This document shows, piece by piece, positions 20,936-25,134 of a DNA stretch of 25,134 nt. The stretch comes from a virus (taxonomy: Duplodnaviria; Heunggongvirae; Uroviricota; Caudoviricetes), in IMG/VR virus record IMGVR_UViG_2737471840_000004, positions 1-25,134 of that record; one strand, given 5' to 3'. A program made the position numbers and the translations under genes. The notes under the pieces were generated by a model. That model had not been told where the DNA came from. It was given only the letters and a program-made list of their open reading frames with translations, and made no database searches. Position 1 is the first letter of the stretch. The number at the start of each line of letters is the position of its first letter.

Positions 20936-20966
20936 GACATAAAAAACAATATTTATTAGAGCAATT
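20936..20966 (-). promoter_or_regulatory. putative leftward promoter with ATTGCTCTAATAA motif
   Basis: Minus strand TTGCTC, 17 nt, TATGTC; near-identical over 20 bp to the 1602-1621 copy; heads the ORFan-rdgC-MTase operon. Confidence 0.4.
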
Positions 20967-21046
20967 TTGCAATAGTTGAACTCCATGTAGACCACAAACA
21001 ACCTGAGTTAAAATAACGAAAATCAGAGCAAATAATTGGTGATGAC

Positions 21047-21331
21047 GTGGCAAGTATTGCAACAAAAGACAGCATTTGTTCGGGGCACGGAGGATTCCCA
21101 TCCAGGCCTCCTGTAGAGAGTGAACCACTACTTAAAGTCAACGGAGTCGAAGTGTTAGTTGATGGTAAGCAATATGCACAGCATACCGATGGAAACAGTA
21201 CGCACGGTGGGCAAGCTATATCAACCAGGGCATGGTTTACCGTCAATGGTAAAGGGATCGTATGCGTTGGTGACCCTGTTTCATGCGGATCTACCGTAGC
21301 GTCCGGAGACGGCCTGGTTCAGGTAAGTTAG
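21047..21331 (+). CDS. PAAR-like / gp5.4-like spike-tip protein
   Basis: 94-aa ORF from GTG; CSGHGG, a second HGG, and VCVGDPVSCGSTVASGDGLVQV resemble PAAR-repeat cone proteins. Weak SD. Confidence 0.6.
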   Translation: MASIATKDSICSGHGGFPSRPPVESEPLLKVNGVEVLVDGKQYAQHTDGNSTHGGQAISTRAWFTVNGKGIVCVGDPVSCGSTVASGDGLVQVS

Positions 21332-21339
21332 GAGATATC

Positions 21340-22128
21340 ATGCTGGAAAAAGACTACCAGTTATCCGCATATAAAAAATTGGCCGCCGCCGGTGGGATGA
21401 AAACACTTGGTGCCATAACATCGGCACGAAACAGTGCTAACACAGCAAAACTGCTTGCAGAAGAATTGACCGGATTAATTCTGGATACAATTGTCTATCC
21501 CGACACTATTACCAGCTATGTTTCAACGATCAGAACAACCACAACCGGCTTAACGAACATTGGAGAACTGGCAACTAAGCACGCGGACCTGTTGGCTGGT
21601 TATGCAGATCTGTCAATGCTGCTTCAACTCGATATTGGTTGGGATGTTTACTGCCGTGCTAATGAGCGAGAAGTTTCAGAACTGCCGATCTCTATTGCCA
21701 TTGGTGATGTGAATATTACTAAATCGCTTGAGGACGCTGTTAACGCGCTTAATACATCAAGTTTAGTCGCTGCAATGGGGGAGATTAACCAGACCCTTAA
21801 CACTGGCTCAGGAAGCTCGCCAGGCTCTGGTTCAGGCGGCGGCACTGCCACTCCCCCACCAGCACTAACAGAAGAGCAAATTGAATCTCTGAAAGTAGCA
21901 ACTGAACAGTTTGGGGTTGTTTTCAACCAGACAACAGCGCCCACAACTGCGTTACAACAGCAGTATGAACGAGCGAATGAAAGCGCCAATGTAGCCATAA
22001 CTGCTTATAACCATGCTATCGGTACTGCGCTTGCGGAAGCATCAGCAAATAAGGCCAGCACAGCCAGCGCAGTTGCTGCTTTGGTTCCTGATTCTGTTCT
22101 TGATGAATTAAACAAAGCGGCACAGTAA
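21340..22128 (+). CDS. hypothetical protein with internal Gly/Ser/Pro linker
   Basis: Start set at ATG 21340 (AGGAG 7 nt upstream, 8 nt after the PAAR stop); track start 21283 overlaps the PAAR gene. Low-complexity GSGSSPGSGSGGGTATPPPA between two Ala/Thr-rich halves. Confidence 0.6.
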   Translation: MLEKDYQLSAYKKLAAAGGMKTLGAITSARNSANTAKLLAEELTGLILDTIVYPDTITSYVSTIRTTTTGLTNIGELATKHADLLAGYADLSMLLQLDIGWDVYCRANEREVSELPISIAIGDVNITKSLEDAVNALNTSSLVAAMGEINQTLNTGSGSSPGSGSGGGTATPPPALTEEQIESLKVATEQFGVVFNQTTAPTTALQQQYERANESANVAITAYNHAIGTALAEASANKASTASAVAALVPDSVLDELNKAAQ

Positions 22129-22167
22129 CAAAGGACTTCATTGATAATTTTTCTTCAGGAGGAAGAC

Positions 22168-22590
22168 ATGTCATTCTTTTCTACGTTAAAAACAGCTTTG
22201 TCTTTGAAGGAGAAACTTGCTGCTACTGGTGTTCTTGTTCTGATTTGCGCACTTGTTGGTGCCGGGTTTGCATGGGAACGTCATCAGCTAAAGCAAGCCT
22301 TGGATAAAATTGGCAGTCTTGATCAGGCTGTTAAGGAACGTGATAAGTCAATAATGGATCTTAACCAGACCATTGAGACGATGAACAAAGCAGAGCAACA
22401 TTTTCACAGCCAGGAAGTGAAAAATGAATCAGAACAAGCCAAATATGCTGACAGGCAAATGGAACGAAAAGCTGAAGTTCAGAAACAACTGGTTGCGGCG
22501 GGTAATGTTCGCCAGCGTATTCCTGCTGACACTCAGCGGTTGCTCCGGGAGTCGATCAGCGAATTTAACGCCGACGCCGACAAAGGTTAA
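22168..22590 (+). CDS. i-spanin (Rz-like)
   Basis: ATG 22168 with GGAGG upstream; one N-terminal transmembrane segment (AATGVLVLICALVGAGFAW) then a charged coiled-coil; the o-spanin is embedded in the +1 frame. Confidence 0.7.
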   Translation: MSFFSTLKTALSLKEKLAATGVLVLICALVGAGFAWERHQLKQALDKIGSLDQAVKERDKSIMDLNQTIETMNKAEQHFHSQEVKNESEQAKYADRQMERKAEVQKQLVAAGNVRQRIPADTQRLLRESISEFNADADKG

Positions 22591-22756
22591 CCACCCTGAC
22601 CCAAAAAGTGCATTCATGTGCAGGATGCCAGAGTTTAGCAGTGAATATTTTGATGATCTGCCAGCGTATATCCTCGATACAGAAACGATGCTGATGGGGA
22701 TTAACAGGAAGAATCGCAACGTTAATGATTACAACCGAGCTATTAGCGGTAACTAA
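22424..22756 (+). CDS. o-spanin (Rz1-like lipoprotein), overlapping the i-spanin gene
   Basis: Signal peptide with lipobox LLTLSGC, Pro-rich TPTPT after the Cys; starts inside the Rz-like gene in another frame and extends 166 nt past it; AGGAAG upstream of ATG 22424; internal starts possible. Confidence 0.6.
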   Translation: MNQNKPNMLTGKWNEKLKFRNNWLRRVMFASVFLLTLSGCSGSRSANLTPTPTKVNHPDPKSAFMCRMPEFSSEYFDDLPAYILDTETMLMGINRKNRNVNDYNRAISGN

Positions 22757-22767
22757 AAGGGATTTTT

Positions 22768-23148
22768 ATGTCTGATAAAGTAACAGTAAAGCAAACTATC
22801 AACAAAGCGACTTCAATCTACAAAATTGAGCAAATCACTGTTGGCAAGCCAGGATCTGAACAATACCGTCGTGCTTTCGAGCTTGCCGATCAGCTTGGTT
22901 TAAAACACCCGGATTGCATTGAGCATGTATTTCCGACCTATGCTGATGAGCAATGTACTCATGTTCTTACCGAAGAGGATTTTTTCAGCACTGAAGAACG
23001 AGAAGGCGTTGATCGCTGTATTGGTGTGATTTGCTCTTCAGTGAGTTATGAGTTATTCCCTAATGTCCATGAAGATGGTGGTATTGGATACCAATTCCTG
23101 TACGAAGGCGATGAGCTTAAATGTTATCAAGCATCGCCGGAATTTTAG
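22768..23148 (+). CDS. hypothetical protein
   Basis: 126-aa ORF with AGGGA 6 nt upstream; acidic, several Cys; last rightward gene before the apparent chromosomal junction. Confidence 0.5.
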   Translation: MSDKVTVKQTINKATSIYKIEQITVGKPGSEQYRRAFELADQLGLKHPDCIEHVFPTYADEQCTHVLTEEDFFSTEEREGVDRCIGVICSSVSYELFPNVHEDGGIGYQFLYEGDELKCYQASPEF

Positions 23149-23209
23149 GCTTGAAATTGATCATCGCATTCTCCATTCGTTTTGAGTTACAAGAACCCAA
23201 TGCTGGAGG

Positions 23210-23635
23210 TTACGGGAGGGAGTGCATAAACATGGGCTGTGGAAGTGCCCTTTTTGAGCAAATAAGGAAATCCTGAATTGTGTGGGAGAGTGTGTTCAGC
23301 GTGGTGTGCTTGGTCAAGACCGAATGGGCTACGGATTGAGAGGGCACGATGGGTGCATGCTGTCTGTCTGCTGATTGCAGTAAAATTAGTGGGATGACGC
23401 CACAACTCATAAAAAAAGGTTTAATTGGCGGACTGGAGTGCGTCTCGCTAATAAAACTGTATAAATCCGCGATCACCAGATGCGGTTTCCATTGCAAAAT
23501 ATGCTCTTTTGCTAACAGGAGATTATTGATTCCTGATACCAGAAATGAGGAGCTGAACCTGCCAGAATGATTAAGCAAGGCCTCTATCCCTGTGCGGGTA
23601 AAGTGGCACCGGTCAATCACTAAAATTTTAAGCAT
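23210..23635 (-). CDS. RcsA/LuxR-family N-terminal-like domain protein without HTH (possibly truncated)
   Basis: 141-aa ORF; N-terminus LKILVIDRCHFTRTGIEALL resembles the RcsA-type pseudo-receiver start; no C-terminal LuxR helix-turn-helix and no room for one before the next gene. Confidence 0.4.
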   Translation of the reverse strand: MLKILVIDRCHFTRTGIEALLNHSGRFSSSFLVSGINNLLLAKEHILQWKPHLVIADLYSFISETHSSPPIKPFFMSCGVIPLILLQSADRQHAPIVPSQSVAHSVLTKHTTLNTLSHTIQDFLICSKRALPQPMFMHSLP

Positions 23636-23830
23636 AAACGTTTCGCATTCAGAAGAGGGGCAATCGACTTTCTGGTTTCAGAAAGCCCTTCATCATAGAG
23701 AACTCCGATGAGTGCCAAATGCGGGAACTACGCCGCTAATTATGCTTAATTCTTGCTTTTAGCAGGCGGTGAATAAAAAGGTTGAAATTCATTTTCTTCC
23801 GGGCAAAAATGCCATTTCACACATTAGCTT

Positions 23831-23874
23831 TGCAGGACGACCTGCAAACGCTTCTTTCACCGGGGACGGCCCCA
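23831..23874 (+). promoter_or_regulatory. guanidine-II riboswitch (mini-ykkC) upstream of sugE/gdx
   Basis: Two hairpins with ACGR tetraloops: tgcagg-ACGA-cctgca (23831-23846) and gggg-ACGG-cccc (23862-23873), 15-nt linker, then GGAG and ATG at 23892. Confidence 0.6.
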
Positions 23875-23891
23875 TTGTTCTGGAGCCTGAT

Positions 23892-23938
23892 ATGTCCTGG
23901 ATCGTTTTATTAATTGCAGGTTTGCTCGAAGTTGTCTG
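23892..23938 (+). pseudogene. sugE: sugE/gdx 5' fragment, interrupted by IS insertion
   Basis: MSWIVLLIAGLLEVV matches the SugE/Gdx N-terminus; the frame then runs into the IS end GTAAGCG at 23938 where the conserved Trp codon would be. Confidence 0.7.
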
Positions 23939-25134
23939 TAAGCGTCAACGGAGCACCGTATTGACGCTTATTTATTGGTGAGTACTACGTTCCATGGCAG
24001 GAGTTCGTCAACTCGGTTGGAAGGCCATTCCGGCAGTACGCTCAGGATATGGCGCATATACGCTTCCGGATCGATACCGTTCAGACGGCAGGTGCCGATC
24101 AGCCCGTACAACAGTGCTCCACGCTCGCCGCCGTGATCGCTGCCAAAGAACATAAAGTTTTTCTTTCCGAGACAGACTGCACGAAGCGCTCTTTCCGCAG
24201 CATTATTATCCGCCTCCGCCAGACCGTCATCACTGTAATAACAGAGGGCATCCCACTGATTCAGTACATAGCTGAACGCTTCGCCCAGTCTGGATTTTTT
24301 CGACAGCGTACCATTCTTCTCCACCATCCATTCATGCAGCGACGTCAGTAACACTTTGCTTCGCTGCTGCCTGACGGCAAGACGCTCTGACTCCGGTAAT
24401 CCCCGTATTTCATCCTCGATGGCGTACAGTTCACTGATTCGCTTCAGGGCTTCTTCTGCCGTCGCACTTTTGCTGCTGATGTATACATCGTGGATTTTTC
24501 GCCGGGCATGGGCCCAGCACGCAACTTCTGTCAGTGCACCACCTTCACGTTCTGCACTGAACAACCTGTCGTAACCTGTGAACGCATCCGCCTGCAGGAT
24601 ACCCCGGAAGGGGCGGAGGTGTTGCTCCGGGTGTTTCCCCTGCCGGTTCGGCGAGTACGCGAACCAGACCGCTGGAGGAGATGACGAACCCACATTGCGA
24701 TCATCCCGGACATACGTCCAGATACGCCCTGTTTTCGCCTTTTTCTGACCCGGTGCCAGTACCTTTACCGGTGTGTCATCAGTGTGAACCTTGCGGGTGT
24801 TCATTACATAACGGTACAGGGCATCATTCACCGGTGTCATTAACTGGCAGCACGCGTCAACCCAGTTGGAGAGTAAGGCCCGGCTCAGTTCGACACCCTG
24901 GCGGGCAAAGATTTCACTCTGACGATACAGTGGCAGATGTTCGCAGTATTTTCCCGTTAACACGCGGGCAAGTAATCCGGGGCCCGCGATACCACGCTCT
25001 ATCGGGCGGGACGGCGCCGGTGCTTCAACAATACAGTCACATTTTGTACAGGCTTTTTTTACCCGTTCTGTGCGGATCACTTTCAGGGCACTGCTCACCA
25101 GTTCCAGCTGTTCAGCGCTGACTTCCCCCAGATA
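23938..25134. mobile_element. IS66-family insertion sequence, right end only (continues beyond right edge)
   Basis: Terminus begins GTAAGCGTCAACGG (IS66-family ends begin GTAA); contains a minus-strand IS66 transposase ORF whose stop lies 30 bp inside the end. Confidence 0.8.
23968..25134 (-). CDS. IS66-family transposase (TnpC), C-terminal portion
   Basis: Contains CWAHARRK and DDTPVKVLAPGQKKAKTGRIW; the frame stays open upstream of the track start (a GTG at 25098) to the window edge, so the N-terminus is outside the window. Confidence 0.9.
   Translation of the reverse strand, partial: YLGEVSAEQLELVSSALKVIRTERVKKACTKCDCIVEAPAPSRPIERGIAGPGLLARVLTGKYCEHLPLYRQSEIFARQGVELSRALLSNWVDACCQLMTPVNDALYRYVMNTRKVHTDDTPVKVLAPGQKKAKTGRIWTYVRDDRNVGSSSPPAVWFAYSPNRQGKHPEQHLRPFRGILQADAFTGYDRLFSAEREGGALTEVACWAHARRKIHDVYISSKSATAEEALKRISELYAIEDEIRGLPESERLAVRQQRSKVLLTSLHEWMVEKNGTLSKKSRLGEAFSYVLNQWDALCYYSDDGLAEADNNAAERALRAVCLGKKNFMFFGSDHGGERGALLYGLIGTCRLNGIDPEAYMRHILSVLPEWPSNRVDELLPWNVVLTNK

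Follow-up and report, generated by a model that had tools for sequence, protein, structure and literature searches.

Gene content of the locus and relationship to P1

Two overlapping plus-strand genes, ppfA (22168..22590) and mlp (22424..22756), lie towards the right end of the window, the 25,134-nt stretch of viral DNA analysed here, within a cluster of the order upfC-upfB-ppfA-mlp-upfA. From position ~142/994 to 23134 the window is collinear, with ~98% identity, with P1 (NC_005856, 85040..62977, reverse strand), RCS47, JL22 and other P1-like phage-plasmids, and with P1 this collinearity spans ~22 kb. Across 21000..23134, nucleotide identities with P1, P7, RCS47 and SJ46 range from 95.6 to 98.6%, and the genes were found to be both orthologous and syntenic: all four relatives possess the same gene order, divergent from uhr-hrdC-dmt. 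The same segment matches 884 E. coli records, nearly all of which are plasmids of 85–115 kb. In P1, the cluster upfC, upfB, ppfA, mlp and upfA is situated just before oriR/repA. The remaining genes of the window comprise the pmg morphogenetic genes, the tail and baseplate genes 26, 25, 7, 24, 6 and 5, as well as dbn, ban, three tRNA genes, tciA, upl, plp, dmt, hrdC and uhr.

The overlapping genes ppfA and mlp

The ppfA gene has an ATG start with AGGAGG 6 nt upstream and encodes a predicted i-spanin of 140 aa, which is identical to P1 PpfA in 138 of 140 residues. The sole strongly hydrophobic segment of the protein, at residues ~17–35 (22216..22272, plus strand; Kyte-Doolittle 19-residue mean 2.35), is the predicted membrane helix of a type II inner-membrane protein with a helical periplasmic domain. 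By hydropathy, PpfA thus has the single N-terminal membrane helix and type II topology of an i-spanin. A single-sequence AlphaFold2 model (pLDDT 79.6) consists of two helices, 4–116 and 120–138, with a break at the sole Pro; the mostly alpha-helical periplasmic domain of an i-spanin is therefore present in the model, a comparison that covers helicity. No periplasmic cysteine is present in the sequence. The profiles matched by PpfA, phrog_89 (1.3e-24), phrog_739 and phrog_214, are all annotated in PHROG as 'Rz-like spanin', and a weak match (1.4e-3, far below the cutoff) was obtained with TIGR03495 LysB, the model for P2 LysB.

The mlp gene, in the +1 frame relative to ppfA, encodes a predicted o-spanin precursor of 110 aa if translated from ATG 22424, and 108 of the 110 residues are identical to those of P1 Mlp. 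Its lipobox L-S-G-C (22532..22543, plus strand) lies in the context ...VMFASVFLLTLSGC (FLLTLSGC), with Cys at codon 40 followed by Ser-Gly. Cys40 is the predicted lipidated residue, and since Ser, not Asp, occupies the +2 position, sorting to the outer membrane is predicted. The mature protein would have 71 residues, with six Pro and one further Cys. Judged from its sequence, Mlp therefore has the predicted features of an o-spanin, namely a small outer-membrane lipoprotein with a lipobox, a Cys and no Asp at +2. It matches phrog_30284 (2e-56) and phrog_456 (5e-4), both again 'Rz-like spanin' in PHROG, so that both proteins show sequence kinship with spanin families by PHROG profiles; against Pfam, neither PpfA nor Mlp reached the cutoff of any family.

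The start of mlp is ambiguous. ATG 22424, with AGGAAG 6 nt upstream, has the best ribosome-binding site, yet it implies a signal peptide of 39 residues. ATG 22445, TTG 22493 and ATG 22505 are other possible, internal starts, and from TTG 22493 the signal would be a textbook one of 16 residues (MRRVMFASVFLLTLSG|C). In the RefSeq record of RCS47, mlp is annotated at only 132 nt and the lipobox is left out. Depending on the start, the overlap of mlp with ppfA amounts to 167 nt (ATG 22424), 98 nt (TTG 22493) or 86 nt (ATG 22505). The gene begins within ppfA and ends 166 nt past its end, which is the 'overlapped' spanin architecture, one of those by which spanin genes are recognised (embedded, overlapped or adjacent); the overlapped class is the commonest among two-component spanins (228/528; PMC6139136).

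The reading of the pair in the first-pass annotation, made from the letters of the window, as an Rz-like i-spanin with an out-of-frame overlapping Rz1-like lipoprotein at 22168..22756 is thus confirmed by hydropathy, by the lipobox and by the PHROG matches. P1 ppfA/mlp (P1_gp064/P1_gp063) and the orthologues in P7, SJ46 and RCS47 are the same genes, with 98–99% protein identity and the same overlap, and the records of these four elements carry ppfA/mlp, 'Rz-like spanin' or 'Rz/Rz1' annotations. In the P1 annotation, ppfA stands for 'possible periplasmic function' and mlp for 'membrane lipoprotein precursor', 'Rz-like spanin'. The spanin genes ppfA and mlp of P1 were identified from predicted features, with reference to Summer et al. 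2007 (PMC9025707). It should be noted that the introduction of that paper calls ppfA the o-spanin and mlp the i-spanin, whereas the sequences say the reverse, with the membrane helix in PpfA and the lipobox in Mlp.

Upstream genes and transcription of the cluster

The first gene of the cluster, upfC (21047..21331, plus strand), encodes a PAAR-type spike-tip protein of the P1 tail that resembles T4 gp5.4. UpfC matches phrog_281 (2e-30) and, just under the cutoff, Pfam PAAR (8.5e-6), and 93 of its 94 residues are identical to those of P1 UpfC. For the P1 protein, an HHpred alignment to the T4 gp5.4 spike tip and a deletion without effect on plaquing have been described (PMC9024508). In a cryo-EM study of 2026, UpfC was built as the monomeric tip of the gp5 spike of the P1 virion, and UpfB was assigned as the 'tripod', three trimers anchored on the spike tip (PMC12810830). 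The upfB gene (21340..22128, plus strand) encodes this tripod protein of 262 aa, which has no hydrophobic segment and matches phrog_1559 (4.6e-136) over positions 1–262 of 263. Both genes ahead of ppfA therefore encode virion proteins of the tail tip, and neither is a lysis gene.

The P1 annotation places the start of upfB at 21283 (281 aa), and ATG 21340 has AGGAG 5 nt upstream; because of this AGGAG, and because the PHROG profile begins at 21340, ATG 21340 is likely the true start. Over the longer form, 252 of 281 residues (~90%) are identical to P1 UpfB. UpfB therefore diverges more from P1 than its neighbours do (98–99%), with the changes concentrated in residues 143–236.

The gaps in upfC-upfB-ppfA-mlp-upfA are 8, 39 and 11 nt. 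This close packing suggests that the five genes form a single transcription unit, and the virion parts encoded in it suggest expression in lytic growth. A scan of the region for promoters and terminators yielded nothing above chance: sigma-70-like sites occurred at chance frequency, and no convincing plus-strand terminator was found. The P1 record has only predicted sigma-70 promoters ahead of ppfA. Upstream of upfC, no P1 late-promoter motif was detected with a crude LP23-derived pattern, which was not significant overall; the same pattern matched the positive control upstream of gene 26 (7412; 7412..7430). In the divergent region between uhr and upfC (20950..21046), the C1 operator of Pdmt is retained (AAATATTTATTAGAGCAAT-like).

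Dispersed lysis genes

No contiguous holin-endolysin-spanin cassette is present at the locus; the neighbours of the spanin genes are UpfC, UpfB and UpfA. Among 28 ORFs scanned in the window, Pfam searches detected neither a muralytic nor a holin domain. The first-pass annotation had considered that the adjacent PAAR-like, 262-aa and 126-aa proteins do not look like a holin or endolysin, and had proposed either that the lysis cassette is split or that one of these neighbours is an unrecognised lysis protein. Its judgement of the neighbours is borne out: in the membrane-segment check that it had suggested, and which we performed, the maximum 19-residue hydropathy of UpfC, UpfB and UpfA was 0.78–0.97, with none above a Kyte-Doolittle value of 1.0, and muralytic and holin domains were absent from all three. 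These values rule out all three as holins. As endolysins they are ruled out by the lack of Pfam, NCBIfam or PHROG lysis matches and, in the case of UpfA, also by a structural model that matches no muralytic structure. Of the two proposals, that of an unrecognised lysis protein among the neighbours falls for UpfC and UpfB, which are virion parts, and falls for UpfA as a holin or endolysin, as this protein has no membrane helix, no muralytic domain and no fold match.

The proposal of a split cassette was right, and such an arrangement is documented for P1, whose lysis genes are described as atypically arranged (PMC9025707). The SAR-endolysin gene lyz and the pinholin gene lydD share one late operon with lydE, the holin gene lydC forms a monocistronic operon, the holin/antiholin genes lydA-lydB belong to the dar operon, and ppfA and mlp partially overlap 'in yet another unlinked operon' (PMC9025707). 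The spanin genes thus stand without an adjacent holin or endolysin because the lysis genes of P1 are dispersed, occupying four loci or more. A similar picture is seen in pUTAK-22-3 (99721 bp), which is 99.9% identical to the window over the spanin region: two holin-family genes with the next gene occupy 32139..33257, the lysozyme gene 43484..44041 and the spanin region 97243..99376, which places the holin and lysozyme genes ~55–67 kb from the spanin region. A holin-endolysin pair elsewhere, which the first-pass annotation had named among the findings that would speak against it, accordingly exists in P1 and in elements closely related to it; the window does not extend far enough to reveal such a pair in this element, and we infer the lyz and lyd genes of this particular element from those relatives, as the window lacks the rest of it.

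UpfA and its homologues in other phages

The downstream gene upfA (22768..23148, plus strand) encodes a small, acidic and soluble protein of 126 aa here and 130 aa in P1, with 23 D+E against 11 K+R, five cysteines and no hydrophobic segment. The alignment with P1 UpfA diverges beyond residue ~120. The only profile matched was phrog_1453 (7e-57), a family of unknown function, and no match was found in Pfam or NCBIfam. An exhaustive HMMER search recovered 44 clusters at E<=1e-3; ~14 of them are genuine relatives over the full length, with 27–51% identity; P0081 and P0090, which gave long HMMER matches, were dropped as ankyrin or low-complexity proteins. By contrast with this exhaustive search, a word-indexed search with UpfA returned only P1-type sequences and their frameshifted or chimeric variants, and scans with the single proteins P0080, P0079 and P0086 gave no matches. 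Public databases contain numerous variants of UpfA (78–156 aa) whose ends differ, are truncated or are chimeric.

An AlphaFold2 model of the P1-type UpfA (P0002), computed with the alignment of its relatives (pLDDT 90.9, pTM 0.83), consists mostly of beta strands and includes two helices. Comparison with the PDB gave nothing significant (best E 0.24), and the only matches in BFVD were a phage 'Gp63' and unnamed or uncharacterised phage proteins; judged from this model, the fold may be undescribed. UpfA is neither a holin nor an endolysin.

In IMG/VR prophage contigs outside the P1 group, UpfA homologues (30–50% identical) are usually encoded on the same strand directly behind a holin-endolysin-spanin cassette and before the terminase genes. 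At nine loci (L005, L025, L030, L059, L066, L074, L101, L102 and L104), the homologue lies downstream of endolysin and spanin genes. A heuristic scan found an ORF with a membrane helix and an overlapping lipobox ORF within ~1 kb upstream of the UpfA homologue at 68 of 86 loci, many of which are near-duplicates and a few of whose spanin calls are doubtful. Profile searches confirmed three types of endolysin and three i-spanin families that are not that of P1 (phrog_13, 214 and 312); in a tblastn search of 102 UpfA-homologue loci, none was matched by PpfA, Mlp, UpfB or UpfC. The order with the UpfA homologue behind the lysis cassette is also found in Pasteurella phage Pm86 and in the GC-rich contigs L101/L102, in the latter at a distance of ~1.7 kb. 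There are exceptions: in the jumbo phage Eowyn (L105) the homologue stands alone and on the opposite strand, in L106/L108/L113 it stands among nin-like early genes, and in phiKO2 it is located behind a putative terminator, 2.6 kb and five genes from candidate spanins. The association of UpfA with lysis cassettes is frequent, not obligate.

One possible explanation of this association is that UpfA is an unrecognised accessory factor or regulator of the last lysis step that travels with spanin genes, which is what survives of the second proposal of the first-pass annotation. Its homologues lie behind endolysins and spanins of differing families, none detectably related to PpfA/Mlp, and P1 keeps upfA beside its spanin genes (11-nt gap) though these are unlinked from the holin and endolysin genes. 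We nevertheless consider this explanation improbable. UpfA has no membrane helix or signal peptide and is thus cytoplasmic by sequence, whereas the site of spanin action is the periplasm; its fold was not recognised as muralytic or as any other known one; Eowyn, L106/L108/L113 and phiKO2 depart from the pattern; and in lambdoid phages accessory genes commonly occupy the slot that separates lysis from packaging genes. Knockdown of upfA, moreover, leaves plating intact (PMC10695390). In its broader form, the explanation would make the UpfA family a conserved companion of spanin genes and lysis cassettes in unrelated phages (P1, enterobacterial lambdoid prophages, Pasteurella phage Pm86 and GC-rich prophages), acting from the cytoplasm on late lysis or its timing, and ppfA-mlp-upfA would be the detached end of a cassette; this, too, we hold to be unlikely. 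The simplest reading is that upfA is an accessory gene, often placed in the slot that ends the late lysis region. The recurrence of UpfA-like genes behind lysis cassettes is a testable hint on a small phage protein of unknown function.

Identity and proposed action of the PpfA-Mlp pair

The pair was compared with three named systems. As in LysB/LysC of P2, the o-spanin reading frame (+1) opens within the i-spanin gene and continues beyond the end of that gene; P2 differs in that LysB/LysC stand behind the holin and endolysin genes in one cassette, and the sequence similarity to PpfA/Mlp is marginal. With Rz/Rz1 of lambda the pair shares its topology and presumed mechanism, a helical protein of the inner membrane and a lipoprotein of the outer membrane. 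The lambda arrangement differs in that Rz1 lies wholly within Rz and that the two genes close the S-R-Rz cassette; Rz carries periplasmic cysteines, in contrast to PpfA, which has none. The T4 spanin pair pseT.3/pseT.2 is encoded away from the holin (t) and endolysin (e) genes, and this layout gives scattered lysis genes a precedent outside P1. The T4 genes, which serve as an example of 'separated' spanins (PMC6139136), differ from ppfA/mlp in that they do not overlap, and have no sequence relation to them.

Another possible explanation is that PpfA and Mlp are envelope proteins of the prophage, active in phage exclusion or with a function like that of the Bor lipoprotein, and not lysis proteins. 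The genes adjoin the plasmid replication region, not lysis genes; the P1 record predicts two sigma-70 promoters, P1ppfA and P2ppfA, just upstream of ppfA; and the spanin role of the pair is only predicted. In addition, CRISPRi knockdown in P1 did not reduce plating (EOP 1.3 for ppfA and 0.24 for mlp), and both genes were scored as non-essential (PMC10695390). These results fit the dispensability of spanins in the laboratory as well, and are not positive evidence for them. Against a function restricted to the prophage envelope stands the fact that both proteins match several independent 'Rz-like spanin' profile families, and that a type II helical periplasmic protein with an out-of-frame, overlapping, small and Pro-containing lipoprotein is the defining arrangement of spanins. 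Furthermore, P1 needs a spanin and no other candidate has been reported. We therefore regard such an envelope function as very unlikely. That the lipoprotein ORF is a chance open frame and ppfA the sole gene has a negligible probability: short out-of-frame ORFs are common and the start codon of mlp is ambiguous, but the frame has 110 codons, a well-placed lipobox behind a hydrophobic stretch and a good ribosome-binding site; the protein of the window is 98% conserved relative to that of P1 and is recognised by two spanin profile families.

The stretch 22168..22756 thus very probably represents ppfA/mlp of a P1-like phage-plasmid, a two-component spanin of overlapped architecture. Both the pair and the scattered lysis-gene layout of P1 are already in the literature, and the feature is a known one; its discovery value is small, since the P1 spanin pair (as a predicted function) and the scattered lysis genes have been published.

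For the spanin pair ppfA/mlp, the following course of action can be proposed. PpfA would enter the inner membrane via its N-terminal helix and, as its sequence and model suggest, extend the long helical domain into the periplasm. Mlp, as predicted from its sequence, would undergo export, receive its lipid at Cys40 and be sorted to the outer membrane, into the inner leaflet. By analogy with lambda Rz/Rz1, the two proteins may then bind by their C-terminal parts and form a bridge that spans the periplasm and is restrained by the peptidoglycan mesh. With no periplasmic Cys in PpfA and a single one in Mlp, a covalent dimer, if there is any, would have to be one of the o-spanin. The holins LydA, LydC and LydD and the SAR-endolysin Lyz, encoded in other operons, would by the same analogy destroy the cell wall, and after the loss of the wall the spanin complexes may fuse or disrupt the outer membrane and so complete lysis.

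The right end of the P1 homology

Homology to P1 ends at 23134, 14 nt ahead of the local stop codon of upfA, with the junction at ~23128–23134. The last upfA codons are replaced there with foreign DNA and differ from those of P1. Compared with P1, the cluster of the window has no oriR/repA behind it, these being absent from their usual place beyond upfA, and the 3' end of upfA is swapped for an ecnR-sugE fragment and an IS66-family element. The foreign segment (23128..23938) does not belong to the spanin system; it forms the distal end of a blaCMY-2-associated region and has 100% identity over 811 nt to the 'LuxR family regulator + sugE' segment of many E. coli plasmids. It includes an ecnR-like gene for a truncated LuxR-family regulator (23210..23635, minus strand) and, from 23892, the first ~15 codons of sugE, which is cut by the end of an ISEc23-like element of the IS66 family (23939..25134, minus strand). 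The terminal sequence GTAAGCG of this element starts at 23938/23939, and its transposase ORF (23968..25098, minus strand) has 99.4–99.8% identity to ISEc23 transposase genes. None of the complete E. coli genomes of the collection contains the upfA junction.

The window thus represents a P1-like phage-plasmid broken beside upfA by DNA of a resistance region and an insertion sequence. The many variant ends of UpfA in public databases suggest that P1-like plasmids are often broken at the upfA/oriR boundary by insertions or by exchange of the replicon, and the break seen in the window bears on how P1-like phage-plasmids acquire resistance genes.
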